From: Escherichia phage Baret
Reading direction: 5' to 3' (one strand)
DNA length: 64,000 nt
Sequence record: OR896834.1
Positions 4,222-26,214 of the stretch are shown here, one piece after another. Position 1 is the first letter of the stretch. Each line of letters begins with the position of its first letter. Made by a program: the position numbers and the translations under genes. The notes beneath the pieces are model-generated. The model ran no database searches, was not told where the DNA came from, and worked only from the letters and a program-made list of their open reading frames with translations.

Positions 4222-5598
4222 ATGACTATTGATATTAATAAGCTGAAAGAAGAACTTGGTCTGGGTGATCTGGCTAAATCTCTGGAAGGTCTGACCGCTG
4301 CTCAGAAAGCCCAGGAAGCTGAACGTATGCGTAAAGAGCAGGAAGAAAAAGAACTGGCTCGTATGAATGACCTGGTTTCTAAAGCAGTTGGCGAAGATCG
4401 TCAGAAACTGGAACAAGCTCTGGAACTGGTTAAGTCCCTGGATGAAAAATCTAAGAAGAGCGCAGAACTGTTCGCACAGACTGTAGAAAAGCAGCAGGAA
4501 ACCATTGTTGGTCTTCAGGATGAAATTAAATCTCTGCTAGCAGCTCGTGAAGGTCGTTCCTTCGTCGGTGATAGCGTAGCTAAAGCACTGTATGGTACTC
4601 AGGAAGCTTTTGAAGATGAAGTTGAAAAACTAGTTCTCCTGTCTTATATGATGGAGAAGGACGTATTTGAAACTGAACATGGTAAAGCCCACGTTAAAGC
4701 CGTTAATACTTCTTCCTCTGTACAGGTTTCCAGTGAAAACTACGAAACTATTTTCTCTACCCGTATCCTTCGTGACCTGCAGAAAGAGTTAGTAGTTGGT
4801 GCACTGTTCGATGAACTGCCAATGTCCAGCAAAATTCTTACTATGCTGGTTGAGCCTGAAGCTGGAAAAGCTACTTGGGTAGATGCTGGTTCCTACGGTA
4901 CTGATGCTACTGTTGGTAACGAAGTTAAAGGTACATTAACTGAAATTAGTTTTAAAACCTACAAACTGGCTGCTAAGTCCTTCATTACTGATGAAACTGA
5001 AGAAGATGCAATCTTCTCCCTGCTGCCGCTGCTGCGTAAGCGTCTGATTGAAGCACACGCTGTTTCTATCGAAGAAGCTTTTATGACTGGTGATGGTACT
5101 GGTAAGCCGAAAGGTCTGTTGAAACTGGCTGAAGATGATGGTGCTAAAGTTACTACTGAAGCTAAAGCTGATGGTACTGTTCTGGTAACTGCTAAAACTA
5201 TCTCTAAACTGCGTCGTAAACTGGGTCGTCATGGTCTGAAACTGAGCAAACTGGTACTGATAGTATCTATGGATGCTTACTACGATCTGCTGGAAGACGA
5301 AGAATGGCAGGATGTTGCACAGGTTGGTAACGATGCTGTTAAACTGCAAGGTCAGGTTGGTCGTATCTATGGTCTTCCGGTTGTAGTTTCTGAATACTTC
5401 CCAGCTAAAGCAGCAGATAAAGAGTTCGCAGTTATTGTTTATAAAGATAACTTCGTAATGCCGCGTCAGCGTGCTGTTACTGTTGAACGTGAGCGCCAAG
5501 CTGGTAAACAGCGTGATGCGTACTACGTTACTCAGCGTGTTAACCTGCAACGTTACTTCGAAAACGGCGTTGTATCTGGTGCTTACGCTGCATCTTAA
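4222..5598 (+). CDS. major capsid protein precursor with N-terminal coiled-coil scaffolding (delta) domain
   Basis: 458 aa; first ~150 aa charged coiled-coil (KLKEELGLGD...EIKSLLAAREG), then capsid-like body; strong codon bias (ctg/cgt/ggt) typical of a highly expressed gene. Confidence 0.85.
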   Translation: MTIDINKLKEELGLGDLAKSLEGLTAAQKAQEAERMRKEQEEKELARMNDLVSKAVGEDRQKLEQALELVKSLDEKSKKSAELFAQTVEKQQETIVGLQDEIKSLLAAREGRSFVGDSVAKALYGTQEAFEDEVEKLVLLSYMMEKDVFETEHGKAHVKAVNTSSSVQVSSENYETIFSTRILRDLQKELVVGALFDELPMSSKILTMLVEPEAGKATWVDAGSYGTDATVGNEVKGTLTEISFKTYKLAAKSFITDETEEDAIFSLLPLLRKRLIEAHAVSIEEAFMTGDGTGKPKGLLKLAEDDGAKVTTEAKADGTVLVTAKTISKLRRKLGRHGLKLSKLVLIVSMDAYYDLLEDEEWQDVAQVGNDAVKLQGQVGRIYGLPVVVSEYFPAKAADKEFAVIVYKDNFVMPRQRAVTVERERQAGKQRDAYYVTQRVNLQRYFENGVVSGAYAAS

Positions 5599-5618
5599 TA
5601 CAGGCTTTTCAGCCGATA

Positions 5619-5644
5619 AGGAGAGCTTCGGCTCTCCTTTTTTA
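5619..5644 (+). terminator. rho-independent terminator after capsid gene
   Basis: GGAGAGC-ttcg-GCTCTCC hairpin followed by TTTTTT. Confidence 0.7.
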
Positions 5645-5657
5645 TTGGGAAAAATAA

Positions 5658-6170
5658 ATGCAAATCATCACAGCCGAAGATTATAGATTATATGGTGGTT
5701 TAAAACGACCTGAATTAGAATCTGGTGTAGAAATGATGATTACTGCTGCCAATGCGCTGATCACAAGCCTTCTAGGCATGGATGACGCTGATGCGGTAGA
5801 CCAGTTAATCAATACAAAACCTACACGTAGGAAATATTTTCTGAGCTCACCATCTGCTACCTCCGTAACTAAAGTGACGATTAACGATAATGAGATTGAC
5901 CCAGAGCAGTATAGGCTATACTCTGACGGTATTATCCTCCTAAAGTTTAATCCTCCAGAAGGTTATATGGATGTAGCATATACACAAGGTGGATTCAATC
6001 CAATACCTGAAGATCTTAAGTTAGCAGCATGTATGCTAGTAGATCATTGGCATAAACAAGATTACCGCCAAGCTAAAACAATTGGTGGTGAAACAGTAAC
6101 CTTCAATAATACTAAATCTGGTATTCCAGAGCATATTCGTACTATTATTGAAGTATATAGGAGAGTATAA
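5658..6170 (+). CDS. head completion / connector protein (putative)
   Basis: 170 aa directly after capsid gene; synteny with T5-like head-tail joining genes. Confidence 0.45.
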   Translation: MQIITAEDYRLYGGLKRPELESGVEMMITAANALITSLLGMDDADAVDQLINTKPTRRKYFLSSPSATSVTKVTINDNEIDPEQYRLYSDGIILLKFNPPEGYMDVAYTQGGFNPIPEDLKLAACMLVDHWHKQDYRQAKTIGGETVTFNNTKSGIPEHIRTIIEVYRRV

Positions 6171-15081: not shown

Positions 15082-17927
15082 AAAAAATATTAGATAGTGC
15101 CAGAAACTACTTAAAAAATAATAGCAGAATAAAAACTGCTAGTCTAATTTCTCTAGAATTACCCGGCTCTACTGGTACTAGTACTGCTTTTATTTACTTA
15201 ACTGACTATTTTAGAGATGTACTATATAACGGTATTCTGTATCAGGCCGGTAAAGTTAAGTCTATTAGCACACATAAACAAAATAGAGATTTATCTATTG
15301 GCAGCCTATCTTTTACTATTACAGGTACAGCTCAGGATGAAGTACTGAAATTAGTGCAGAATGGTGTGTCCTTTTTAGATAGACTAGTATCAATTCATCA
15401 AGCAGTTATTACAGAGGATGGTTCTATTTTACCTGTAGACCCAGACACAAATGGGCCTTTATTATACTTTAGAGGTAGAATTACTGGTGGAGGTATTAAG
15501 GATAATATTAGTACTTCGGGAGTTGGAACCTCCACAATTACTTGGAATTGTTCTAACCAATTCTATGATTTTGATAGGGTTAATGGTAGATTTACTGATG
15601 ATGCTTCTCATAGAGGGCTTGAGATTGTAGCAGGACAATTAGTTCCATCTAACGGGGCTAAAAGACTTGAGTACCAAGAAGATTATGGGTTCTTTCATGC
15701 CAATAAAAGTATCTCTATTCTAGCAAAATATCAGGTACAGGAAGAAAGATACAAGCTAAAGTCTAAGAAAAAGCTATTTGGACTATCTAGAAGTTATAGT
15801 CTTAAAAAGTATTATGAGACTGTTACTAAAGAAGTAGATATAGATTTTAACCTTGCTGCTAAGTATATACCAGTAGTTTATGGTGTACAGAAAATACCAG
15901 GAATACCTATTTTTGCGGATACGGAATTACACAATCCTAATATAGTTTATGTAGTATATGCTTTTGCTGAAGGAGAGATAGACGGTTTTCTTGACTTTTC
16001 CTTTGGTGATAATCCTATGATTTGTATGGACTCTAATGATAGCTCTGCTAGAACCTGCTTCGGTGTTAAAAAAGTAGCAGGAGACACCATGCAAAGAATA
16101 GCATCAGGAATACCTTCTAGTAGTCCTTCTGTGCATGGCCAGGAATACAAGTATAACGATGGTAATGGTGATATAAGGATTTGGACTTACCATGGAAAAG
16201 CTGATCAAACAGCTTCTGAAGTATTAGTAGATATAGCGAAGGAACGTGGGTTCTACCTCCAAAATATGAATGGTAATGGGCCTGAGTACTGGGATGCTAG
16301 ATATAAACTATTAGATACTGCATACGCGGTAGTACGCTTTACTATTAATGAAAACAGAACTGAGATTCCAGAAGTTAGTGCTGAGATTCAGGGTAAGAAG
16401 ATAAAAATCTACCATTCTGATGGTAGAGTAACTGCTAATAGTACTAGTTTAAATGGTATTTGGCAAACACTTGACTACTTAACTTCAGATAGGTATGGTG
16501 CAAACATTGCTATTGATCAGTTCCCTCTCCAACAATTAGTACAAGAAGCTGCTATCTTAGATATTATAGATGAATCTTACCAAGTATCCTGGCAGCCATA
16601 CTGGAGATATGTTGGGTGGACTGATCCATTAGCAGAAAATAGACAAATAGTACAAATGAATACTATTCTAGATACATCTGAATCAGTATTTAAAAACGTG
16701 CAAGGTTTGCTAGAGTCCTACGGTGGGGCTATTAACAACTTATCTGGTCAATATAGGATTACTGTAGAAAAATATTCTAATACTCCATTAGAGATTAATT
16801 TTCTGGATACTTATGGTGATTTAGAGCTATCAGATACTACTGGTAGAAATAAATTCAACTCAGTTCAAGCATCCATAGTAGACCCAGCTCTTAGCTGGAA
16901 AACTAACTCTATTACCTTTTATAACTCTAAATATAAAGAGCAAGATAAAAATTTAGATAAAAAATTACAATTATCTTTTGCAAATATAACTAACTACTAT
17001 ACTGCTAGAAGTTTTGCAGACAGAGAACTTAAGAAATCTAGGTATTCTAGAACCCTCTCATTCTCTTTACCATATCAATTCATTGGTATTGAGCCTAACG
17101 ATGCTATTGCATTTACATACGACCGTTACGGATGGGATAAGAAGTACTTTTTAGTAGATGAAGTAGAAAACTCTAGAGAAGGAAAGATAAATGTTACTCT
17201 ACAGGAATATGGGGAAGATGTATTTATCAACTCTGATCAAGTAGATAATAGTGGTAATGATATACCAGATATTAGTAACAACGTTCTTCCTCCTAGAGAT
17301 TTTAAATATACTCCTACACCCGGTGGTTTAGTTGGTTCTATAGGAAAAAATGGTGAGTTATCTTGGCTTCCAAGCTTAACTAATAACGTAGTTTATTATT
17401 CTATCGTACATTCCGGTCATGCTGAGCCTTATACTGTGCAGCAACTAGAAACAAATCCCAATGAACGCATGATCCAAGAGATAATTGGAGAGCCTGCAGG
17501 CTTAGCGATATTTGAAATAAGAGCTGTGGATATAAACGGTAGAAGAAGTTCTCCAGTAACATTATCTATAGAACTTAACTCTGCTAAAAACCTTAGTGTA
17601 GTATCTAATTTTAGGGTAACTAATACTGCTTCTGGAGATGTAACTGAGTTTGTTGGCCCAGATGTGAAACTAGCCTGGGATAGAATACCTGAAGAAGATA
17701 TAATAGAGAGTATATTTTATACCCTTGAAATACACGATTCGCAAAATAGGATGTTAAGAAGTGTACGTATTGAAAATCAGTATACTTATGACTATTTATT
17801 AACATATAATAAGGCAGACTTTGCTCTCCAGAACAGCGGTGCTCTAGGTATAAATAGAAAATTGTATTTTCGTATTAGAGCTGAAGGGGATGATGGAGAA
17901 CAGTCTGTGGAGTGGGCATCCATTTAA
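15078..17927 (+). CDS. baseplate hub protein (pb3-like)
   Basis: 949 aa following distal tail protein; start overlaps upstream stop. Confidence 0.6.
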   Translation: MKKILDSARNYLKNNSRIKTASLISLELPGSTGTSTAFIYLTDYFRDVLYNGILYQAGKVKSISTHKQNRDLSIGSLSFTITGTAQDEVLKLVQNGVSFLDRLVSIHQAVITEDGSILPVDPDTNGPLLYFRGRITGGGIKDNISTSGVGTSTITWNCSNQFYDFDRVNGRFTDDASHRGLEIVAGQLVPSNGAKRLEYQEDYGFFHANKSISILAKYQVQEERYKLKSKKKLFGLSRSYSLKKYYETVTKEVDIDFNLAAKYIPVVYGVQKIPGIPIFADTELHNPNIVYVVYAFAEGEIDGFLDFSFGDNPMICMDSNDSSARTCFGVKKVAGDTMQRIASGIPSSSPSVHGQEYKYNDGNGDIRIWTYHGKADQTASEVLVDIAKERGFYLQNMNGNGPEYWDARYKLLDTAYAVVRFTINENRTEIPEVSAEIQGKKIKIYHSDGRVTANSTSLNGIWQTLDYLTSDRYGANIAIDQFPLQQLVQEAAILDIIDESYQVSWQPYWRYVGWTDPLAENRQIVQMNTILDTSESVFKNVQGLLESYGGAINNLSGQYRITVEKYSNTPLEINFLDTYGDLELSDTTGRNKFNSVQASIVDPALSWKTNSITFYNSKYKEQDKNLDKKLQLSFANITNYYTARSFADRELKKSRYSRTLSFSLPYQFIGIEPNDAIAFTYDRYGWDKKYFLVDEVENSREGKINVTLQEYGEDVFINSDQVDNSGNDIPDISNNVLPPRDFKYTPTPGGLVGSIGKNGELSWLPSLTNNVVYYSIVHSGHAEPYTVQQLETNPNERMIQEIIGEPAGLAIFEIRAVDINGRRSSPVTLSIELNSAKNLSVVSNFRVTNTASGDVTEFVGPDVKLAWDRIPEEDIIESIFYTLEIHDSQNRMLRSVRIENQYTYDYLLTYNKADFALQNSGALGINRKLYFRIRAEGDDGEQSVEWASI

Positions 17928-19984
17928 TGATTTCAAATAATGCACCAGCCAAAATGGTCTTAAATAGTATAATGACTGGATATACTTTGGCATATGTCCA
18001 GCACTCTATATATACTGACTATGACGTTATTGGTAGATCTTTTTGGTTAAAAACAGGGGAAAGTATAGATAGACGTGATTATACTGGTATAGATACTTTC
18101 TTCGTAATGATTAATAACCTGACCCCTTCAACCTCTTACGAGATTCAAGGGGCTTTTTATGATTCTATTATAGACTCTGAGCTATTAGAGGCTAAGATCG
18201 GTATAAATTTATCTAATAAAACTACCTTTAGTACTAAGAGAAAACCTACTATTACTGCTGCTCGATCAGAAGCAGATCCAGTAGATGTGGGTGTTGGTGC
18301 TCCAATAGTAGTTATAGAAACTACGGGAGAAGCTAGTTATTGTACTATTGAGCTAAAGAGTACTCAACCTTCAAATAGCCCGTGGGTAAAGCATTATATA
18401 GGTCCACTATCCCCCACTATTAGATTTGGTGGTGTTCCTGTTGGGGATTACAAAGTACGCATATCAGGGCAAGTTACTATGCCTGATGGTGTAACGGTAG
18501 ACTCCTCTGGGTACTTTGAATTTTCCAAAGTTCTTACTGTAGAATATAACTTTGTACCTCCTACTGCTCCTAATAACATTACCTTCAAAGCTGCAAGAAT
18601 AGCGGATGGTAAAGAGAGATATGACCTCCGTGTACAGTGGGAATGGGATAGAGGAGCTGGAGCTAACGTTCGCGAATTTGTTGTTTCTTACATAGATTCA
18701 GTAGAATTCAAAAAAACTGGATGGACTAAAGCCCAAAAAATTAACGTAGGTGCTGCACAAGCGGCAACTATTATATCGTTTCCGTGGAAAATTGAGCATA
18801 AATTTAAAGTCTCTTCTATAGCATGGGGGCCAGATGCTCAAGATGTTACAGATTCCGCAGTACAGACTTTTATACTAAATGAGGATACTCCTCTTGACAA
18901 TAGTTTTGTTAATGAAACGGGTATTGAAGTAAACTATGCGTATATTAAGGGTAAGATCAAAGATGGATCTACTTGGAAACAAACATTTTTAATTGATGCC
19001 GCTACCGGTGCTATTAACATAGGTCTTCTAGATGCTGAAGGAAAAGCACCAATATCTTTTGATCCGATTAAAAAGATAGTTAACGTTGATGGTAGTGTTA
19101 TAACTAAAACTATCAATGCTGCTAACTTTGTAATGACCAATCTAACTGGCCAAGATAACCCTGCAATCTATACTCAAGGTAAAACTTGGGGGGATACAAA
19201 ATCTGGTATCTGGATGGGAATGGATAATACTTCCGCTAAACCAAAGTTAGATATAGGTAATGCTACTCAGTGGATACGCTATGATGGTACTACACTTCGT
19301 ATTTCTAGTGGTGTTGTTATAGGAACTCCTAATGGTGACGTGGATCTTGGTACAGGTATGCAAGGTAAGCAAACGGTATTTGTTTACAAACTCGGTAAAA
19401 GCTTGCCTGCTAAACCTCTAGAACAAGATTACCCGCCTCCTGGATGGTCTAAAACACCACCAAATCGTACTGATATGACCCAAAATATCTATGCTACTAC
19501 TGGTACTCTAGATCCTGTTACTAATAAGTTATTAGAGGGTACTAGTTGGGCAGATGTGGTTCAGTGGAGTGGTACTGAAGGTACTATAGGGCATGATGGA
19601 CAACGTGGTCCTGGGATGTATTCTGTAGGTATAGCAGGTTTAGGTGGTTGGGATGATGGACAAGCTAATTCCTTCTTTCAAAGTAACTTCGGTTCTCCCC
19701 CAGTTAAATATGATGTATTAACTGAATTTAATAGTAATGCCCCACAATCAGCATTTACAAGGCAATGGAATGGGTCTGGTTGGATTAACCCTGCAATGGT
19801 TCTCCATGGAAACATGATTGTTAATGGGACGGTGACGGCAGATAAAATTGTAGCAGGAAATGCTTTCTTATCTCAGATCGGTGTTAACATCATTTATGAT
19901 AGGAATGCTGCATTATCGGGAAACCCTGAGGCATACTACAAGATGAAGATAGACCTAAATAGTGGGTATATCCATATAAGGTAA
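17927..19984 (+). CDS. central straight fibre / tail tip protein (pb4-like)
   Basis: ATG 17927 overlaps hub stop (TAATG); ORF-track start 17912 is GTG; synteny. Confidence 0.5.
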   Translation: MISNNAPAKMVLNSIMTGYTLAYVQHSIYTDYDVIGRSFWLKTGESIDRRDYTGIDTFFVMINNLTPSTSYEIQGAFYDSIIDSELLEAKIGINLSNKTTFSTKRKPTITAARSEADPVDVGVGAPIVVIETTGEASYCTIELKSTQPSNSPWVKHYIGPLSPTIRFGGVPVGDYKVRISGQVTMPDGVTVDSSGYFEFSKVLTVEYNFVPPTAPNNITFKAARIADGKERYDLRVQWEWDRGAGANVREFVVSYIDSVEFKKTGWTKAQKINVGAAQAATIISFPWKIEHKFKVSSIAWGPDAQDVTDSAVQTFILNEDTPLDNSFVNETGIEVNYAYIKGKIKDGSTWKQTFLIDAATGAINIGLLDAEGKAPISFDPIKKIVNVDGSVITKTINAANFVMTNLTGQDNPAIYTQGKTWGDTKSGIWMGMDNTSAKPKLDIGNATQWIRYDGTTLRISSGVVIGTPNGDVDLGTGMQGKQTVFVYKLGKSLPAKPLEQDYPPPGWSKTPPNRTDMTQNIYATTGTLDPVTNKLLEGTSWADVVQWSGTEGTIGHDGQRGPGMYSVGIAGLGGWDDGQANSFFQSNFGSPPVKYDVLTEFNSNAPQSAFTRQWNGSGWINPAMVLHGNMIVNGTVTADKIVAGNAFLSQIGVNIIYDRNAALSGNPEAYYKMKIDLNSGYIHIR

Positions 19985-19990
19985 TAAATA

Positions 19991-20413
19991 ATGAGTACTG
20001 AAAATAGAGTTATAGACTTAGTGATAGATGAGAAAGTACCTTATGGTCTAATGATGCAATTCTTAGATGTTGATGATAGTACTTATCCGCATACAAATAC
20101 CCCTGTTAACTTAACAGGGTATTCTCTAAGAGGTACTATAAAGACCAGTCTTGATGAGAATGCGGAAACTTTGGCATCTTTTACTACTAAAATTATTGAT
20201 GCTGCTCAAGGTGCTATAGCCATAAGTTTGCCCGTAGAGGCGGTAGAGAATATTGGTGCCAAAGCCACCAAAGAAAGAGATAAATATAATCCTCGCCAAC
20301 GTTTTGCAGGATACTATGACATAATTATGACACGAGATGTCATAGGATCAGCTATTAGCTCCTTTCGTATAATGGAGGGTAAAGTATTTATCAGTGATGG
20401 GGTAACTAAATAA
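19991..20413 (+). CDS. small tail collar protein (p132-like)
   Basis: 140 aa between pb4-like gene and tail-fibre gene. Confidence 0.45.
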
Positions 20414-22803
20414 TGGCAGTAACTACTAAAATTATTGTGCAACAAATACTGAATATAGATGATACGAAAGCTACTGCTAGTAAATTTCCTAGATACACCG
20501 TAATTCTTGGAAATTCTATTAGTTCTATTACTGCTAGTGAGTTAGTATCTTCTATAGAAGCCGCTGCTAAATCTGCTGCAGCTGCTAAAGATTCTGAAAT
20601 AGCAGCTAAGACTTCAGAGCTTAATGCTAAGAACTCTGAACAGAAAGCTGCTATTTCTGCTGGAGCTTCTGAAGCTTCTGCTACTCAGTCTGCTACCTCT
20701 GCTACTCAGTCTGCCACTTCTGCTACTAAATCCGCAGAATCAGCTGCAGCTGCAAAAACCTCTGAAACCAATGCTAAGTCTAGTGAAACAAAAGCTAAAA
20801 CTAGCGAAACTAATGCAAAAGCTAGTGAAACAAAAGCTAAAACTAGCGAAACTAATGCAAAAGCTAGTGAGGATAAGGCAAAGGCTAGTGAAACTAATGC
20901 TGCTGCTTCGGCTGCAGCGGCAAAACTTAGTGAGGATAATGCAAAGGTCAGTGAGACTAATGCTGCCGCTTCTGCTGCGGATTCCAGTGGTTTTAGGAAT
21001 GAGGCGGAAACATTCTCTACACAAGCTGCGACATCAGCTTCTGCTGCAAAAACCTCCGAAACAAAGGCTAAAACTAGCGAAACTAATGCAAAAGCTAGTG
21101 AGACTAAAGCCAAAGCTAGTGAGACTAACGCAGCTAGTTCCGCAACTTCAGCTAGTCAGTCAGTAACTACTATTCAAGGCTTAAAATCAGATGTTGAGCA
21201 ACTAAAATCAGATACTCAGGCCATTAAAAACAGTGCTGTAACAGAGACAACAGCTATAAAAGCAGATGTTGCACAGTTAAAAACAGACACACAAGGCATT
21301 AAGAATAGCGCGATAACAGAAACTACCACGCTAAAAAACCAAGCTGCAACTTCTGCAACTAATGCTGCTAATTCTGCAGCAGAAGCGGGGAGACAGGCTA
21401 CTGCTGCTGCTAATAGTGCTAATACTGCTAAAACTGAAGCCGATCGTTCAAAAACTGAGGCTGATAGATCAGAAGCTGCTGCTAATTCTACCCCCGACAT
21501 TCAACCTCTTCCAGATGTATGGATACCGTTTAATGACTCTCTGGACATGCTAGCAGGATTTGCACCAGGCTATAAAAAAATAACAGTCGGTGATGAGGAA
21601 ATAACAATACCTAGTGACAAGATTGTTAGCTTTACACGTGCATCAACTGCGACATATATTAATAAATCAGGTGTATTAGCTGTTGCGGAGATTGACGAGC
21701 CGCGATTTGAACTAGATGGGTTGTTAATTGAAGGGCAAAGAACTAACCTGCTAATCAACTCAACCAATCCGACTAAATGGAACAAGTCGTCAAATATGAT
21801 CTTAGATAGATCAGGTGTAGATGATTTCGGATTCCAGTACGCAAAATTCACATTAAAACCAGAAATGGTAGGACAAACTTCAGCTATTAACATAGTAACC
21901 GTTTCCGGCAGTAGAGGTTTTGATGTAACAGGAAATGAAAAGTATGTAACCATATCATGCAGGGCGCAAAGTGGGACTCCAAATTTAAGATGCCGATTAC
22001 GATTTGAAAATTACGATGGATCTGCTTATACATTTTTGGGTGATGCTTACGTAAATCTGACAGATTTATCAATTGAAAAAACTGGCGGCGCTGCAAATCG
22101 TATTACTGCAAGGGCTGTTAAAGATGAAGCAAGCAAATGGATTTTCTTTGAGGCAACAATTAAAGCGCTTGATACAGAAAATATGATAGGTGGAATGGTT
22201 CAGTATGCGCCAGCAAAAGGGGAAGGTACTGGTGCAGATGATTATATTTATATTGCGACACCTCAAGTTGAAGGCGGGGCGTGCGCTTCATCGTTTATTA
22301 TTACAGAAGCGACTCCAGTAACACGGGCAAGCGATATGGTCACATTACCAATAAAAAACAACCTTTACAATTTGCCGTTTACAGTACTTGTGGAAGCTCA
22401 TAAAAACTGGAGTATAACGCCAAATGCAGCGCCACGTGTTTTTGATACCAGCGGTCATCAAACCGGAGCGGCTATTATTCTTGCTTTCGGATCTGCCGAA
22501 GGCGATAATGATGGTTTCCCTTATTGCGATATAGGTAAATCAAACAGAAGGGTTTACGAGAATGCAAAACTAAAAAAGATGATCATGGGAATGAGAGTAA
22601 AGAGTGATTACAATACTTGCTGTGTAAGTAATGCCAGAATATCAAGCGAAACAAAAACGGAATGGAGATACATACAATCAACGGCTACTATAAGGATTGG
22701 AGGACAAACAACTACGGGCGAACGTCATCTTTTCGGGCACGTTAGAAACTTTAGAATCTGGCATAAGGAACTAACTGATAGACAAATGAAGGAGTATGTA
22801 TGA
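20413..22803 (+). CDS. L-shaped tail fibre protein A: N-terminal heptad-repeat shaft, C-terminal globular receptor-binding region
   Basis: 796 aa; residues ~90-250 are 7-residue repeats (SETNAKA/SETKAKT...), then 20-residue repeats, then Cys-containing globular C-terminus. Confidence 0.65.
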   Translation: MAVTTKIIVQQILNIDDTKATASKFPRYTVILGNSISSITASELVSSIEAAAKSAAAAKDSEIAAKTSELNAKNSEQKAAISAGASEASATQSATSATQSATSATKSAESAAAAKTSETNAKSSETKAKTSETNAKASETKAKTSETNAKASEDKAKASETNAAASAAAAKLSEDNAKVSETNAAASAADSSGFRNEAETFSTQAATSASAAKTSETKAKTSETNAKASETKAKASETNAASSATSASQSVTTIQGLKSDVEQLKSDTQAIKNSAVTETTAIKADVAQLKTDTQGIKNSAITETTTLKNQAATSATNAANSAAEAGRQATAAANSANTAKTEADRSKTEADRSEAAANSTPDIQPLPDVWIPFNDSLDMLAGFAPGYKKITVGDEEITIPSDKIVSFTRASTATYINKSGVLAVAEIDEPRFELDGLLIEGQRTNLLINSTNPTKWNKSSNMILDRSGVDDFGFQYAKFTLKPEMVGQTSAINIVTVSGSRGFDVTGNEKYVTISCRAQSGTPNLRCRLRFENYDGSAYTFLGDAYVNLTDLSIEKTGGAANRITARAVKDEASKWIFFEATIKALDTENMIGGMVQYAPAKGEGTGADDYIYIATPQVEGGACASSFIITEATPVTRASDMVTLPIKNNLYNLPFTVLVEAHKNWSITPNAAPRVFDTSGHQTGAAIILAFGSAEGDNDGFPYCDIGKSNRRVYENAKLKKMIMGMRVKSDYNTCCVSNARISSETKTEWRYIQSTATIRIGGQTTTGERHLFGHVRNFRIWHKELTDRQMKEYV
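20680..21165 (+). repeat. in-frame tandem repeat tract within tail-fibre gene, including a perfect 42-bp tandem duplication (20782-20823 = 20824-20865)
   Basis: repeat read directly from sequence; encodes heptad repeats; explains spurious antisense/out-of-frame ORFs at 20624-21166. Confidence 0.85.
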
Positions 22804-23078
22804 GAGATATAATCCTAAAATTCACGGATAAATCAGCATATAAAGATTTTCTCTTAAAAATAGAGTGGGATACTAATGAAAATTTGCAAAACCAAATAAT
22901 GCTTGACGAAATTGGATATACTTATACTGAAATCTCTCCGCTAGGTGATGAGGAACCTAGATGCATCCGTAATGAAGGGTATTATATTAATGTAAGGATT
23001 CTTGATGAATCCTTTACTTACGAATCCTTCGAGCCTTTTATAGTTCAGCTAGAACAGCCTCTTAGAGTATGGGCATAA
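22800..23078 (+). CDS. hypothetical protein between the two tail-fibre genes
   Basis: 92 aa; AAGGAG RBS 5 nt upstream; ATG overlaps upstream stop. Confidence 0.45.
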   Translation: MRDIILKFTDKSAYKDFLLKIEWDTNENLQNQIMLDEIGYTYTEISPLGDEEPRCIRNEGYYINVRILDESFTYESFEPFIVQLEQPLRVWA

Positions 23079-23087
23079 GGTTTTATA

Positions 23088-24839
23088 ATGGTAACTAAAA
23101 CAGTAATTCCTACGGATATTACAAAACTTAAAAATGAGTCACTTAATAAAAATAATAACCTGAGTGACTTAGCAGACCGTGCAGCAGCATGGCTAAATGT
23201 ACGTCCTATTGGATCTACTCCCCTTGCGGGAGACCCCGTTAATGATTATGATGCTGTAACTAAGCGTTGGGTAGAAAATAAGATTAATACTGGCACAGTA
23301 GGACCCACAATGAATGGTGTCATGAACTATGGTGTAGGTGATTTTCACCTTCGCGATAGCCGTGCGTATATTCAACCTTATGAGGTAGTTTCTGATGGGC
23401 AGCTTCTTAACAGGGCTGACTGGCCGGAGCTTTGGGCTTACGCTCAAATGGTGGGGGCTATAGAGGATTCTGAATGGCTGGCTGATAAATTTCAGCGCGG
23501 CAAATACTCTAAAGGGAATGGAACAACAACCTTTCGTGTTCCAGATAAGAATGGTGTACAAGATGGGTCAATACGCGCTCTTTATGGCCGCGGAGATGGT
23601 GGGAATAGCAATGCAAATGGGCAACTGTTCGAATCCGCTGCGCCTAATATCTATGGGCGTATTGCTAGTTATTCTGGCTCGTCATATGCTCAGGTATTCA
23701 GCGATATCAATCAAGGTGCATTTAGAACAAGTAATGATCTATACCCTGCTGCGGCAGGTGATGCAATCCCGATGACGGGTGCAATTTCAATATCTGGGCG
23801 CTACAACACCCTTGAGATTGATGCGTCACGCTCAAGCCCGATCTACGGGGCATCAAATGACGAAATCCTTACACGAAACTTTGTCGGCGTCTGGGTGATT
23901 CGTGCATCTGGTGGATTTGTTGCTGCGAAGACATCATGGAGTGTGATAAACGCTGATGCTGTTAAACCTTCTGCTAGTACTACTGTTTATGGCGGAAGTG
24001 TACTATCTGAATATAAAGTAGGTACTAGCAGTGAAGCTATAAGTACATTACGTGCTAAAGCTACTATTGATGGCAACTACTCTACTGAGCTACTAATAGA
24101 TAATAAATCTACTGGTAAATCGAGTTCCGCCCAGCTTGTAGATACTGGGAATTTTGTAGCGGATCGTTTTGAAGCTAATCTAGTAACTGGTATGGCGTGG
24201 TCTCAGACGGGCTGGGTACAAGGTACTTTTTCTCAGAGCGAAGCGAATATAGGCAGTACATTTAATTTTAATAGTATTTTGAGTGGTTCCCAGTATTCTA
24301 CTGCGGGGTATAAAACATCTGCACATTTTGGATTAATTCATAATGACTTGGGTTCCTTTGCTGATTCTTGCTGGCATGTATCAGGAGATGCGGATAACAA
24401 ATTTGGTGTACGTTTAAAAATTCAACCAAACAATAATAGTATTTATTTCTATTCTTGGTGGCCAGGTGCTTCAGCAACCTATACTTTGCAATTAAATGCT
24501 GTATCTGATTCTCGCTTAAAGCATGATATTAAGGCTATAGACGCAACTAAGTCCATCGAGGTATTAAAAGGATTAGAATTCCAATCCTTTGTATATAATA
24601 ACGATGAAAAATCTCGTGTCCGACGTGGGGTTATTGCTCAGCAAGTAGAGACTATAGAACCACTTTATGTAAAAACTAGAAAATTTTATAATGATGACGG
24701 AATAGAGCAGGAGCAAAAGGAATTAGATACAACTCCAATGCTTCTTGACACTATGCATGTTGTGCAAGATCTTATTAAACGGATTGAAGATCTAGAGAAA
24801 GAGCTTGAGCAATTAAAGGTACAATTAGTATCACAATAA
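23088..24839 (+). CDS. L-shaped tail fibre protein B with tail-collar-type domain and C-terminal intramolecular chaperone (peptidase S74-like) domain
   Basis: 583 aa; N-terminal DAVTKRWVENK and ADWPELWAY motifs; C-terminal NAVSDSRLKHDIKAID...RRGVIAQQVE typical of self-cleaving tail-fibre chaperone domains. Confidence 0.75.
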   Translation: MVTKTVIPTDITKLKNESLNKNNNLSDLADRAAAWLNVRPIGSTPLAGDPVNDYDAVTKRWVENKINTGTVGPTMNGVMNYGVGDFHLRDSRAYIQPYEVVSDGQLLNRADWPELWAYAQMVGAIEDSEWLADKFQRGKYSKGNGTTTFRVPDKNGVQDGSIRALYGRGDGGNSNANGQLFESAAPNIYGRIASYSGSSYAQVFSDINQGAFRTSNDLYPAAAGDAIPMTGAISISGRYNTLEIDASRSSPIYGASNDEILTRNFVGVWVIRASGGFVAAKTSWSVINADAVKPSASTTVYGGSVLSEYKVGTSSEAISTLRAKATIDGNYSTELLIDNKSTGKSSSAQLVDTGNFVADRFEANLVTGMAWSQTGWVQGTFSQSEANIGSTFNFNSILSGSQYSTAGYKTSAHFGLIHNDLGSFADSCWHVSGDADNKFGVRLKIQPNNNSIYFYSWWPGASATYTLQLNAVSDSRLKHDIKAIDATKSIEVLKGLEFQSFVYNNDEKSRVRRGVIAQQVETIEPLYVKTRKFYNDDGIEQEQKELDTTPMLLDTMHVVQDLIKRIEDLEKELEQLKVQLVSQ

Positions 24840-24840
24840 A

Positions 24841-24885
24841 AGAAAACCCCAGTGGACAAAATCCACTGGGGTTTATTATTTATTT
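24841..24885. terminator. bidirectional rho-independent terminator at convergence of late (+) and early (-) transcription
   Basis: 10-bp perfect stem CCCCAGTGGA/TCCACTGGGG, A-run upstream and T-run downstream. Confidence 0.8.
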
Positions 24886-24895
24886 TATATGTAGA

Positions 24896-25342
24896 TTACT
24901 TACTTCCTGAACTTCCAAATCCTCCTTCTCCACGTACAGTCTCTTCTAACTCATCAACGATTTCAAAATTATGAGTTGAGTAATGTGGCAATACCACTAG
25001 CTGACAAAGTCTCTCGAAATTCTCCAGAGTTTGCATTTCAGAACCGTAATTATAGAGGTTCATCTTAATAGTACCACGATAGTCTGAGTCGATCACCCCT
25101 GCGGTGTTTGCAATCATCAAATAGCGCTTACCTAAAGAGCTACGAGGAACCACCAAACCGAACCAACCTCGCGGAATTTCTACCGCGACACCGGTGTCAA
25201 TCATTAGGGATTTGCCTGGCGCAATAGCACGTAAATCTGCGGCAGGGTTTGTACCAAAGAATGCTCGCAGATCCATACCTGCGGCATCTTCGGAACCAAT
25301 CTTAGGCATACAATCTGGATGAGTTAATTTAATTTTAATCAT
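24896..25342 (-). CDS. dut: dUTP diphosphatase
   Basis: AGMDL, PRSSL, GVIDSDYRG and RGEGGFGSSG motifs (dUTPase motifs I-V). Confidence 0.9.
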   Translation of the reverse strand: MIKIKLTHPDCMPKIGSEDAAGMDLRAFFGTNPAADLRAIAPGKSLMIDTGVAVEIPRGWFGLVVPRSSLGKRYLMIANTAGVIDSDYRGTIKMNLYNYGSEMQTLENFERLCQLVVLPHYSTHNFEIVDELEETVRGEGGFGSSGSK

Positions 25343-26214
25343 TGTTCTGCAATCTCCAAAATATCTTTTGTAAACTTATCTAATACATCTTGACCTACAG
25401 CAGCAATAGCGTCCACACAGTAGGTAGGTAAATCCACCAGAATTAGGTTTCGATAAAGCAATTCTTCCGAAGCATTTAAATTCTGTATATATTTCTGTTT
25501 TCCAGGTAGTGGAAGCTGATCAATAATATCCAGAACGTTACCAAATTCACGGATAATATTATATCCGCGTTTTGCCCCAATACCTTCAACACCACGGATA
25601 TTATCCCCTAAATCACCCATAATTGCTTTCAGAGAGATAAACTGCTCTACATCGTCAACATTATGGTGCTCATACATATCACGAAGATGATATTCACGAC
25701 GTGTTGTGAAAGAAAAACGGGAAACTTTATCTGTTAATAAAGTATCCCAGTCACCATCGGTAGAAATTAGCCAAACATGATCATATAGATGCCCAATCAG
25801 CTTAACAATATAAGCTGCCATATCATCTGCTTCTACGCCACGAATAGTGAAGGTTGGGAATGTAGTTTCACATAGTTCGAAAGCATCTTTCAAATACTCG
25901 AAGAACTGCTCATCTAACGCTTTTTCCTCTTCCGTACGCTGAGAGTATTTCTCATCTCGATTCCCTTTATACTCTGGAAGATGCTCTAGGCGGAATGCAG
26001 ACTTTCCTTTATCCCCTAAAACTATTGTAGTTCTAGCAGAATAAGATTTTGCTAGAGACTGAATAGTGGAAACATAACTTGAGGCAAATGGTTTTTTACT
26101 GTTGTTATGTTTGAAGCGAAAGCCTAAGTTAGTTCCATCGACAATCATTAGGTTACGACGGGAAGCCATTTCAGCTTCCTCTTCTTCAATAAATTTTCCC
26201 CAGGATTTACTCAT
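25339..26214 (-). CDS. flap endonuclease / 5'-3' exonuclease (D15-like)
   Basis: 291 aa; MIVDGTNLGFR, GVEADD, LISTDGD acidic clusters typical of FEN/5'-exonuclease fold. Confidence 0.85.
   Translation of the reverse strand: MSKSWGKFIEEEEAEMASRRNLMIVDGTNLGFRFKHNNSKKPFASSYVSTIQSLAKSYSARTTIVLGDKGKSAFRLEHLPEYKGNRDEKYSQRTEEEKALDEQFFEYLKDAFELCETTFPTFTIRGVEADDMAAYIVKLIGHLYDHVWLISTDGDWDTLLTDKVSRFSFTTRREYHLRDMYEHHNVDDVEQFISLKAIMGDLGDNIRGVEGIGAKRGYNIIREFGNVLDIIDQLPLPGKQKYIQNLNASEELLYRNLILVDLPTYCVDAIAAVGQDVLDKFTKDILEIAEQ

Follow-up and report, generated by a model that had tools for sequence, protein, structure and literature searches.

Genes of the lateral fibre locus

The window, that is, the whole stretch of 64,000 nucleotides of Escherichia phage Baret analysed here (OR896834.1), carries two fibre genes, ltfA and ltfB, and a small ORF, orf92, directly downstream of an LtfC-like collar gene (Table 1). 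This agrees with the lateral-fibre locus proposed in a first-pass annotation of the sequence; all three ORFs were found on the + strand with the coordinates and sizes given there. As shown by homology, LtfA is the proximal and LtfB the distal fibre. The genes ltfA, orf92 and ltfB are tightly coupled, and a strong terminator lies downstream. The stop codon of ltfC and the start codon of ltfA share 1 nt (TAATG), and the start of orf92, with an AAGGAG ribosome-binding site upstream, overlaps the stop of ltfA (ATGA). The terminator stem contains 7 GC pairs, with T-runs on both strands, and an annotated bidirectional terminator is found at the equivalent position in T5.

Table 1. Features of the Baret lateral fibre locus (positions in the window)
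Feature	Positions	Strand	Basis or remarks
ltfC-like collar gene, 140 aa	19991..20413	+	Pfam PF23926 LtfC, E 4.5e-14; phrog 'collar tail protein for L-shaped tail fibre attachment'
ltfA, proximal fibre (by homology), 796 aa	20413-22803	+	
LtfA N-terminal anchor, aa 1-60	20413..20592	+	homology to DT57C LtfA, T5 Ltf
LtfA shaft, aa 61-369, Ala/Ser/Thr/Lys/Glu-rich repeats	20593..21519	+	tandem repeats
LtfA conserved segment before lectin-like core, aa 370-437	21520..21723	+	alignment
LtfA lectin/CBM-like core ('GTA head spike fibre' domain), aa 438-639	21724..22329	+	
LtfA C-terminal conserved part, aa 640-796, ends ...HLFGHVRNFRIWHKELTDRQMKEYV	22330..22803	+	
orf92, 92 aa	22800-23078	+	
ltfB, distal fibre (by homology), 583 aa	23088-24839	+	
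LtfB N-terminal 15-aa peptide MVTKTVIPTDITKLK, candidate docking peptide	23088..23132	+	conservation
LtfB conserved N-terminal region, to aa 105	23133..23402	+	identity among relatives
LtfB RBD1 ('Gp12-like RBD1'), about aa 106-300	23403..23987	+	homology; name from PMC11990801
LtfB distal part ('T5-like RBD2' region), aa 301-472	23988..24503	+	name from PMC11990801
LtfB S74 intramolecular chaperone, aa 473-583, and stop codon	24504..24839	+	PF13884, E 3e-12
Bidirectional intrinsic terminator, between ltfB and convergent dUTPase gene	24844..24874		13-14 bp stem

Residues 1-218 of LtfA match residues 1-233 of DT57C LtfA (PDB 8hqz_d, E 1.8e-36), and the N-terminus is 53-54% identical to those of T5 Ltf and DT57C LtfA. 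In DT57C, the N-terminal part of LtfA is threaded into the LtfC ring (PMC10713586). Homology to the 1396-aa T5 Ltf, as detected by BLASTP, is confined to the start of LtfA (aa 1-234 against T5 Ltf 1-205), and neither orf92 nor LtfB gave a BLASTP match to T5 Ltf. As the first-pass annotation had it, a repeat shaft and a globular C-terminus follow: tandem repeats of 21, 42 and 63 nt at 20668-21132 and of 75 nt at 21182-21336 precede a non-repetitive C-terminal part. The length of the shaft differs among relatives (VSe12, 698 aa; KS_S14, 557 aa). In an alignment of 21 homologues from several phage groups, residues 370-437 showed a mean pairwise identity of 0.72-0.90, and residues 438-639 are the most variable part of the protein. 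Residues 405-654 are homologous to the RcGTA head spike fibre Rcc01080 (PDB 6tb9, E 1e-6), and the GTA_spike_fiber domain scores above its family cutoff (NCBIfam NF048003). The C-terminal region has a CBM-like fold; its AF2 model is confident in the core only (mean pLDDT 59). No S74 domain was found in residues 640-796, and a Laminin_G_3 match at the C-terminal end is sub-threshold.

The 15-aa peptide at the N-terminus of LtfB is kept in T5-like phages, Seuratvirus, Warwickvirus and two prophage lineages, in proteins that differ over their remaining length; S74 is also part of those from KurtStettler, tunus and a lambdoid prophage. No sub-region of LtfA was selectively conserved in the lineages with a docking-peptide gene. 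The N-terminal region that follows is 97-100% identical (aa) in seven T5-like relatives, 90% identical in AKFV33, and nearly identical to DT57C LtfA 540-627. RBD1 is 52-78% identical to its counterparts in T5-like relatives; its closest match is in SP15 (90% aa), with further relatives in Wifcevirus and phiEco32-type phages. Tail-collar motifs had been noted in LtfB. The Pfam Collar match at aa 139-155 is sub-threshold (13.8 bits vs a cutoff of 24), but the region is homologous to the 'Gp12-like RBD1' of IrisVonRoten Gp24. The C-terminal chaperone domain named in the first-pass annotation is present, with Peptidase_S74 at aa 473-525 (47 bits vs a cutoff of 22) and an SDSRLK motif at 473-478 that marks its start; the chaperone would self-cleave at Ser473.

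The product of orf92 is an acidic 11-kDa protein (pI 4.3; AF2 pLDDT 83.7) belonging to phrog_1361, of unknown function, in a family of 303 clusters of which none is named. In each of 81 loci, a homologue of the LtfA C-domain immediately precedes it; these are not 81 independent events, because closely related E. coli prophages dominate among them. A docking-peptide gene lies downstream in just 12 of these loci and is missing there in 68; thus, the primary partner of orf92 would be the LtfA C-domain. No orf92 is present in DT57C or T5, whose fibres end in S74. Fibre chaperones can be encoded separately, downstream of the fibre genes, as are Tfa of lambda and Mu and gp38 and gp57A of T4. Like these, orf92 is a small gene immediately 3' of a fibre gene that is devoid of an intramolecular chaperone, and it is strictly co-inherited with the fibre C-terminal domain; profile and fold comparisons detected no sequence or fold similarity to them. 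We infer that the orf92 family is tied to the lectin-type fibre end as a fibre-end assembly or accessory factor, an assignment contributed here.

Mosaicism and base composition

The mosaic composition suspected in the first-pass annotation was borne out mainly by comparison with other phages. The best donor phage changes at least seven times over about 5 kb, with switch points at about 19200, 21550, 21700, 22255, 23222, 23540 and 24430. The backbone is 96-97% identical to SIA3lw and FGS017, but the fibre locus just about 80%, and its modules show 60-92% aa identity to unrelated phage groups. For the LtfA C-domain, identity reaches 92% in ~51-kb siphoviruses and 85% in Seuratvirus; relatives of RBD1 occur among sipho-, myo- and podoviruses. 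The RBD2 region is 87-91% identical (nt) to mar004NP2, IrisVonRoten and T5_ev219, and from about 24430 the S74 region is 100% identical (nt) to mar004NP2 and KS_S14. Nearest relatives differ for the shaft, the lectin core, the unit of orf92 and the junction, RBD1, RBD2 and S74, and some of them belong to unrelated phage families. The lectin/CBM-like core of LtfA is an exchanged allele. The receptor-binding parts of this strongly mosaic locus, for which horizontal acquisition had been proposed, are common to unrelated phages.

Two segments encoding globular parts had been described as GC-rich, and only one of them proved to be so. Segment 23400-23900 has 48.3% GC vs 39.0% for the window (z 2.9; 0.4% of same-size windows as high) and a GC3 of 0.407 vs a mean of 0.263 in 194 late-gene windows (sd 0.049, max 0.359). 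This patch, together with most of the sequence without a close donor, lies in the RBD1 stretch. Segment 21540-22800, however, is ordinary (39.9% GC, z 0.38; 34% of windows equal or higher; GC3 0.30). The modestly enriched part of ltfA is instead the shaft (20560-21540; 43.4%), which we attribute to amino-acid content because its GC3 is only 0.20. From its sequence, then, the globular domain of LtfA is not marked by GC enrichment, although the comparative data identify it as an exchanged module.

Related fibre systems and alternative readings

The arrangement is not new: three-gene loci of this kind were described for AKFV33 in 2012, for mar004NP2 in 2019 and in the BASEL collection in 2021 and 2025, and annotations of many Tequintavirus genomes show it as well, among them those of IrisVonRoten, BUCT632, SIA3lw, FGS017, mar004NP2, T5_ev219, Es2 and AKFV33. 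In IrisVonRoten (Bas32; Maffei 2021, PMC8594841; Humolli 2025, PMC11990801), Gp22, Gp23 and Gp24 (796/92/574 aa) have identical gene order and spacing. As in Baret, the proximal fibre ends in a lectin-like ('galectin-like') domain, and the "T-shaped" distal fibre carries two receptor-binding domains (a Gp12-like RBD1 and a T5-like RBD2) besides its S74 chaperone (PMC11990801). The N-anchor (93%), orf92 (92%), the LtfB N-region (97%) and S74 (99%) are closely similar, whereas the lectin domain is only 75% and RBD1 59% identical. AKFV33 ORF137-136-135 (Niu 2012, PMC3326045) and mar004NP2_00160-00162 (Michniewski 2019, PMC6563131) form the same cassette after ltfC. The parts of the former are 23-90% identical to those of Baret; the latter is 99.5-99.6% identical over 22255-23222 and 24429-25440 but has another lectin-core allele (64-67% nt) and another RBD1 (52% aa). 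Mass spectrometry of virions detected the first fibre protein in AKFV33 (ORF137; PMC3326045) and mar004NP2 (mar004NP2_00160; PMC6563131), and both fibre proteins, ORF42 and ORF44, in SIA3lw.

[quoted passage not shown] LtfB 3-577 of Baret matches DT57C LtfA 511-1073 (44%, E 1e-147) and also DT57C LtfB from residue 206 (44-45% for the distal module as a whole). In DT57C, however, both fibre proteins end in S74, there is no lectin-like domain, a 38-nt gap replaces orf92, and LtfB docks via a phiEco32 gp15-like N-terminus, whereas in Baret the distal module is encoded as a protein of its own that starts with the 15-aa peptide. T5 does have a single fibre of the size given in the first-pass annotation (ltf, or pb1; 4191 nt, 1396 aa); its gene lies, as in Baret, between the collar gene on one side and the bidirectional terminator and dut on the other. 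Beyond the first ~205 aa (53% identity to LtfA) no homology is detectable, except that the fibres of both phages end in a chaperone of the S74 type, matching at the family level. The T5 locus is a single gene; orf92 and the GTA-spike-fibre domain are absent from it. The Baret locus is not a split T5-type fibre, as had been supposed, but a different, widespread three-gene cassette. We conclude, with a probability of roughly 85%, that it encodes a two-segment lateral (L-shaped) tail fibre of the AKFV33/mar004NP2/IrisVonRoten type, a recombinational patchwork within Tequintavirus.

A single T5- or DT57C-like ltf gene broken by a nonsense or frameshift mutation, with the downstream ORFs as remnants, would account for the collinearity of both ends with DT57C LtfA (1076 aa; LtfA 1-188 with 1-202, LtfB 3-577 with 511-1073). 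However, about 600 aa of LtfA and the whole of orf92 have no counterpart in DT57C LtfA or T5 Ltf, the three ORFs are intact with their own start codons and ribosome-binding context, their sizes and spacing are kept in many phages, the virions of relatives contain both fibre proteins, and the LtfA C-domain scores above the threshold of a defined family. The uniform composition and full-length collinear homology to a single-gene fibre that the first-pass annotation would have expected of a pseudogenised fibre were both absent, and this candidate was rejected. Pseudogenisation is thus extremely improbable; the locus is real and functional. That LtfB is a fibre in its own right, bound at another site of the tail tip, is also very unlikely, even though weak density in DT57C suggested that LtfB folds back onto the tail tip (PMC10713586). 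LtfB has no T5-type N-terminal anchor, and the homologous distal module of DT57C is covalently continuous with the anchored fibre. Moreover, the tail tips of lambdoid, T1-like and Seuratvirus phages differ, yet their proteins with the same peptide always lie behind an LtfA-type C-domain and orf92. AlphaFold-Multimer models of IrisVonRoten, in which Gp24 is placed on Gp22 (PMC11990801), also agree with a position of LtfB on LtfA, as its distal segment or branch.

Instead of a chaperone, orf92 may be a structural adaptor kept in the virion at the LtfA tip, where it would form a socket for the LtfB peptide or cap the lectin domain; we hold this to be the less probable role. Its place between the two fibre genes, the fixed gap of 9-12 nt to the docking-peptide gene, and the presence of every docking-peptide gene immediately 3' of an orf92 homologue in the loci examined are consistent with this. 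So is the C-terminal tail (...LEQPLRxWA), which is among the best-conserved blocks (0.71) yet modelled as disordered (pLDDT 42), suggesting a partner-binding motif; among the weak fold neighbours are adaptor proteins and immunity proteins, for example MecA and CdiI. Against it, the 68 loci lack a docking-peptide gene behind orf92, the published IrisVonRoten model joins the fibres without invoking Gp23, and orf92 went undetected in virion proteomics of relatives by methods that could not have detected it. For the GC-rich patch, amino-acid composition by itself, with no bearing on horizontal origin, is an improbable explanation. About half of the GC excess does come from Gly/Ala-rich content, and all T5-like alleles have 45-53% GC here; yet amino-acid content alone predicts 42.3% GC (vs a 39% background), short of the value observed, and GC3 exceeds that of all the late-gene windows. 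Only GC3 is allele-specific (0.24-0.44), and because the alleles differ it is not explained by codon selection common to all. The segment also has no donor of at least 95% identity among close relatives, and its homologues are spread across morphotypes.

Fibre assembly and host range

In the two-segment fibre that we propose, the first ~60 aa of LtfA are, by homology, the T5/DT57C-type anchor into the LtfC collar, followed by the repeat shaft and the lectin/CBM-like domain. orf92 would be a dedicated partner of the LtfA C-terminal domain, which has no chaperone of its own, most likely an assembly chaperone or small accessory subunit produced in step with LtfA via translational coupling. LtfB would plug non-covalently into the distal end of LtfA via its 15-aa peptide, as suggested by the conservation of the peptide and the published IrisVonRoten model. 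A plug-in junction of this kind, at a peptide conserved across five phage or prophage lineages, is a further proposal of the present analysis.

The assembled fibre would offer up to three glycan-binding sites; with these acting together, the phage would bind the O-antigen reversibly before its pb5 engages the outer-membrane receptor. Capsular polysaccharide is bound by the RcGTA head spike fibre Rcc01080 (PMC10218006), but this is a 325-aa protein on capsid vertices, whereas the Baret domain makes up the distal end of an 800-aa tail fibre, with orf92 encoded directly downstream. IrisVonRoten infects O16-restored K-12 (PMC8594841; PMC11990801); given the divergence of its lectin domain and RBD1, its receptor specificity probably differs from that of Baret. 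By analogy with T5, DT57C and IrisVonRoten (PMC4728585, PMC8594841, PMC11990801), and in line with the first-pass annotation, the locus should set the O-antigen-dependent host range of the phage.

Organization of the fibre locus and its counterparts

The lateral-fibre locus of phage Baret consists of three genes, with exactly the sizes and coordinates that the first-pass annotation had assigned to them: ltfA, for the proximal fibre LtfA, the small orf92, and ltfB, for the distal fibre LtfB. ltfA lies directly 3' of the collar gene ltfC, with pb4 and pb3 upstream of the latter. The stop of ltfC and the start of ltfA overlap in the sequence TAATG, as do the stop of ltfA and the start of orf92 in ATGA, with an AAGGAG ribosome-binding site closely upstream of orf92; ltfB follows orf92 after 9 nt. 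Sigma-70-like sites within the locus are rarer than in shuffled sequences (7 versus 14.5 expected), and thus there is no sign of separate transcription of the three genes.

Features of the fibre locus and nearest relatives of its segments (nucleotide identity)
Feature	Position	Strand	Description
LtfC collar gene	19991-20413	+	PF23926
ltfA	20413-22803	+	796-aa ORF
orf92	22800-23078	+	92-aa ORF
ltfB	23088-24839	+	583-aa ORF
Bidirectional terminator	24844-24874	.	13-14-bp; ends the unit before the convergent dUTPase gene
Segment	19000-19200		SIA3lw, 98-100%
Segment	19163-21273		BUCT632, 98.7-99.4%; three runs, breaks at ~19570-19697 and ~20877-20893
Segment	19163-20499 and 21568-21885		VSe12, 98.4-99%
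Segment	21850-22200		BUCT632, 98.6%
Segment	22255-23222		mar004NP2/KS_S14, 99.5-99.6%; spans ltfA end, orf92 and ltfB start
Segment	23277-23534		BUCT632, 98%
Segment	23550-24430		None above ~91% ("private" stretch, contains RBD1)
Segment	24429-25440		mar004NP2/KS_S14, 99.5%

The three proteins are letter-for-letter those deposited in GenBank as WWD13086-88 with the 108-kb genome of Baret, a Citizen Phage Library isolate listed just as "Tequintavirus" and without an analysis of its fibres. Over 20-24 kb, the flanks of the window share 96-97% identity with two Salmonella phages, SIA3lw and FGS017, and with several Escherichia phages. The cassette found here, formed by ltfC, a fibre of ~780-810 aa without the S74 chaperone domain, an ORF of ~90 aa on its stop and, ~10 nt on, an S74 fibre of ~560-590 aa, is annotated with the same order and sizes in eight Tequintavirus records (IrisVonRoten, BUCT632, SIA3lw, FGS017, mar004NP2, T5_ev219, Es2 and AKFV33). 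In IrisVonRoten the sizes are 796/92/574 aa as against 796/92/583 aa in Baret, and its Gp24 is homologous to LtfB over the full length, with 97/59/90/99% identity by part.

The two-gene fibre of AKFV33 was described in 2012 and its first protein confirmed in virions (PMC3326045), as was the homologue in mar004NP2 by mass spectrometry (MS) (PMC6563131); both fibre proteins were found by MS in virions of SIA3lw (PMC12752171). For IrisVonRoten, the models of Humolli 2025 (PMC11990801) show a galectin-like domain protruding from the proximal fibre Gp22; in the same models Gp24 is "T-shaped" and carries two receptor-binding domains, a Gp12-like RBD1 and a T5-like RBD2, as well as an intramolecular chaperone. 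A T-shape for LtfB would rest on this model of Gp24. The 92-aa protein is not discussed in the AKFV33, mar004NP2, SIA3lw, Golomidova 2016, Ayala 2023 or Humolli 2025 papers. The Baret locus is a deposited but uncharacterised example of a documented arrangement.

Some inconsistencies were found in these sources. The proximal fibre of IrisVonRoten is Gp22 in the legend of Fig 12 of PMC11990801 and Gp23, the 92-aa ORF, in its main text, and PMC12752171 gives SIA3lw a single Ltf gene, yet reports the S74 protein ORF44 in virions. The distal fibre gene is in two to three ORFs in VSe12 (L006), KS_S14 (L008) and the mar004NP2 record OR896837 (L002), which is short of one Ala codon-equivalent in ...ADRAAAWLNV...; in the earlier mar004NP2 record LR027384 (L009) the gene is intact. 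The breaks could stem from errors in sequencing, or the distal fibre could have been lost during passage on rough laboratory hosts.

Domains of the two fibres and their relation to T5 and DT57C

Residues 438-639 of LtfA match GTA_spike_fiber (NCBIfam NF048003; 60.5 bits against a cutoff of 36, profile positions 1-181 of 182), and the domain also matches in sequence the head spike fibre of RcGTA (PDB 6tb9; E 1e-6), which binds capsular polysaccharide (PMC10218006). The predicted beta-sandwich fold, lectin- or CBM-like, is consistent with polysaccharide binding. The monomer model of the whole C-terminal region has a mean pLDDT of 59 and is usable only over residues ~449-624. In LtfB, S74 (PF13884) covers residues 473-525, with 47 bits against a cutoff of 22, and Pfam Collar is sub-threshold (13.8 bits versus 24). 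SDSRLK, at residues 473-478, fits the S-D-x-R-x-K motif at the start of the domain, which we take, from the endosialidase and T5 chaperones, to be the catalytic Ser...Lys cleavage motif; the predicted products are a mature fibre of 472 aa and a chaperone of 111 aa.

T5 has a single Ltf of 1396 aa, and the locus had been described at first as a split version of such a fibre. This is not so: the likeness is confined to residues 1-234 of LtfA, 53% identical to residues 1-205 of T5 Ltf (E 1e-33), and no BLASTP match was found between T5 Ltf and either orf92 or the 583-aa protein. The LtfA N-terminus is also 54% identical to residues 1-202 of DT57C LtfA and matches PDB 8hqz_d (DT57C LtfA residues 1-233) with E 1.8e-36. 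LtfA thus has a T5-type anchor, its N-terminal part being homologous to the segment that inserts into the LtfC collar. In DT57C, where a branched LtfA/LtfB fibre is established, the LtfA N-terminus is anchored in the LtfC ring (Golomidova 2016, PMC4728585; Ayala 2023, PMC10713586). No match to DT57C LtfA was found for residues 235-796 of Baret LtfA, and it is the 583-aa protein that aligns with its residues 511-1073. Judging from these alignments, the two ends of a single DT57C protein fall on two genes here. A fibre gene interrupted by a nonsense mutation, the pseudogene that the first-pass annotation had named as what would refute its view, is ruled out by the ~600 aa of sequence unrelated to T5 Ltf and DT57C LtfA in BLASTP and by orf92, which lie between the two ends, and by the conservation of the layout in many phages.

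The arrangement also differs from that of DT57C as a whole. Both DT57C fibre proteins end in S74, whereas here PF13884 is found in the 583-aa protein only, and the 796-aa protein gave no Pfam match, nor did S74 emerge when its C-terminal part was scanned at E up to 10. The DT57C fibre genes have no intervening ORF, unlike those of Baret. Moreover, DT57C LtfB uses an N-terminal domain resembling phiEco32 gp15 to dock on a gp14-like region of LtfA, but the alignment of the Baret protein begins only at residue 206 of DT57C LtfB, and its own N-terminus (MVTKTVIPTDITKLK) is unrelated.

Mosaicism and base composition

Segment donors were assigned by nucleotide-level comparison with eight relatives, per record (see the table). 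The nearest relatives of the backbone are only ~80% identical at the fibre locus, and mar004NP2 and IrisVonRoten just 64-67% across 21700-22300. Within the straight-fibre gene pb4 (17912-19984), the sequence changes at about 19200 from SIA3lw-like (98-100%) to BUCT632/VSe12-like (99-100%); identity to SIA3lw falls to 80-85% beyond ~19200 in the 3' part of pb4 (19000-19600). The recombinant block therefore begins upstream of ltfC and not at the fibre gene.

By amino acid identity, the best relative of RBD1 is that of the T5-like phage SP15 (90%; O157:H7 host), followed by IME178 (78%), BRET (75%; ~60-kb genome), YD-2008.s (71%; ~45-kb genome), Wifcevirus myoviruses (~60%) and phiEco32-type podoviruses (51-58%). 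For the LtfA C-domain, identity reaches 92% in the ~51-kb siphoviruses XY3, swan01 and tuinn and is 85% in the Seuratvirus KurtStettler, 70% in the Warwickvirus tunus and 56-74% in Stf-like proteins of E. coli prophages. Because relatives of both occur across such diverse phages, the horizontal acquisition of the receptor-binding modules, proposed from base composition, is well supported, by these comparisons and not by composition. Frequent horizontal transfer of RBDs has been remarked upon (Humolli 2025, PMC11990801).

Two segments had been singled out by eye as GC-rich. At 23400-23900 this held: GC is 48.3%, in the top 0.4% of equal-sized windows (39.0% for the window as a whole), and GC3 is 0.41, higher than in all 194 same-size late-gene windows (mean 0.26, maximum 0.36). 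Amino acid content and late-gene codon usage predict 42.3% GC. All T5-like alleles of the domain have 45-53% GC, while GC3 varies from 0.24 to 0.44 between alleles; the anomaly is thus part amino acid effect, part allele-specific codon signature. The enrichment claimed for 21540-22800 is absent, GC there being an ordinary 39.9%; the shaft has 43.4%. Save for that segment, the initial observation is real, and its reading of the two-fibre locus as a mosaic that is exchanged horizontally and determines host range is in essence correct. With the architecture and its mosaic nature already published, the finding is confirmatory and not surprising.

The orf92 family and a proposed junction between the fibres

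orf92 codes for a protein of 11 kDa (pI 4.3) belonging to phrog_1361, "unknown function". A profile search against clusters at 90% identity returned 303 clusters, all of unnamed proteins of 91-93 aa, and an HMM search run exhaustively on 1.84 billion representatives only 90 (at 50% identity) after removal of repeat-protein false positives. The latter, proteins of 590-3677 aa with 5-10 "orf92 repeats", scored below 15 bits per stretch and are TPR or PKD repeat arrays; one such match, P0328, has no relation to the Vequintavirus fibre. The family is essentially restricted to Escherichia phages and prophages. A scan of one genome per species gave only four loci, three from Escherichia and a 2.8-kb contig (L107) binned as a Collinsella sp. 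MAG (actinobacterial), in which an orf92 homologue is followed by a MATSTVIPGDITTLK protein; this contig is most likely a mis-binned fragment of an Escherichia prophage. The AF2 model of orf92 (pLDDT 84) is an alpha/beta sandwich with only generic structural neighbours. The C-terminal tail is among the best-conserved blocks, yet is modelled as disordered, as would fit a motif that binds a partner.

In 81/81 loci with enough upstream sequence, mostly closely related E. coli lambdoid prophages, the gene directly 5' of orf92 encodes a homologue of the C-terminal region of LtfA over its full length, and this gene ends 3-6 nt past the orf92 start (ATGA or adjacent stop/start). No orf92 is present in T5 or DT57C, the fibres of which end in S74. 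This pairing, together with the absence of orf92 where fibres end in S74, suggests that orf92 would serve the C-terminal domain of the proximal fibre, which has no chaperone of its own, either in assembly or as a small accessory subunit. Tfa, gp38 and gp57A showed no similarity to orf92 in sequence or fold; orf92 does resemble such chaperones in gene position, lying directly downstream of the C-terminal domain of its putative client fibre and being co-inherited with it.

An LtfB-type gene follows orf92 in only 12 of the 81 loci. In 68, the place of the distal fibre is taken by a conserved hydrophobic protein of ~95-98 aa (MDISPLLHALCAVAAQ...), unrelated to LtfB, with no Pfam match and starting 9-12 nt after the orf92 homologue (L030-L104 and L014, Lambda_ev245); possibly it is a membrane protein associated with the fibre module. 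Other genes were noted beside the cassette. In three E. coli chromosomes (L018-L020, 6402-8301), a retron-like defence pair of a reverse transcriptase (RVT_1) and SLATT_5 lies directly 3' of the prophage fibre cassette, followed by DinI, and the lambdoid phage Lambda_ev245 (5177-8626) has a sitABCD manganese transporter, annotated as cargo, right after the fibre-orf92 pair.

The first 105 residues of LtfB are 97-100% identical in seven T5-like relatives and 90% in AKFV33; in neighbouring parts identity ranges from 52% to 100%. The first 15 recur at the start of the post-orf92 gene in KurtStettler, tunus, prophages and several viral contigs, as MATSTVIPGDITTLK in lambdoid prophages and MASVTVIPTDINNLK in a second prophage type. 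Beyond this peptide, the proteins of those lineages are unrelated in sequence and length (234-586 aa); S74 was present in the three scanned (KurtStettler, tunus and a lambdoid prophage). In DT57C LtfA the homologous module starts just past the position of the peptide and is covalently continuous. Probably, the peptide acts as a non-covalent plug of the distal onto the proximal fibre. As to a socket in LtfA, no C-domain region was differentially conserved between lineages with and without a docking-peptide gene, in a comparison that included two mis-extracted sequences. We tentatively propose, at a probability of about 0.3, that orf92 represents an undescribed fibre-end family and would be one of three elements of a universal plug-and-socket junction, the others being the conserved scaffold that surrounds the lectin domain of GTA-spike type and the 15-aa peptide with which the downstream S74 proteins begin, M-[VA]-T-x-T-x-I-P-x-D-I-[TN]-x-L-K.

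In L021-L023 (E. coli prophages, about 5290-5660) the start of the S74 protein has been called too late; the true start is MASVTVIPTDINNLK, ~10 nt past the orf92 stop, and the frame appears interrupted in L021. In proteins of 234-245 aa, S74 begins at residues 116-120 (tunus, L013:4792-5529; L018:5292-5996), and the mature part would be little beyond the peptide and a coiled coil. In KurtStettler (L012:4789-6321), S74 covers residues 208-259 of 510, with ~250 aa remaining after it.

Which types of O-antigen a T5-like phage can penetrate depends on its lateral fibres, and the locus is therefore the practical point at which to predict host range or re-engineer it, for phage therapy as for biocontrol. 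The additions made here are modest: the breakpoint map, the allele-specific GC3 of RBD1, the strict orf92-lectin coupling and the cross-lineage candidate docking peptide. The nucleotide map marks the sites where natural recombination already exchanges units, namely the shaft, the lectin core (21724-22329), orf92 with the junction, RBD1 (23403-23987), RBD2 and S74. The strict pairing of orf92 with the lectin fibre end and the conserved N-terminal peptide of distal fibres provide two testable hypotheses on fibre assembly and on swapping between unrelated phages. If the proposed junction is real, T5-like, T1-like, Seuratvirus and lambdoid phages could swap distal fibres without re-evolving attachment.
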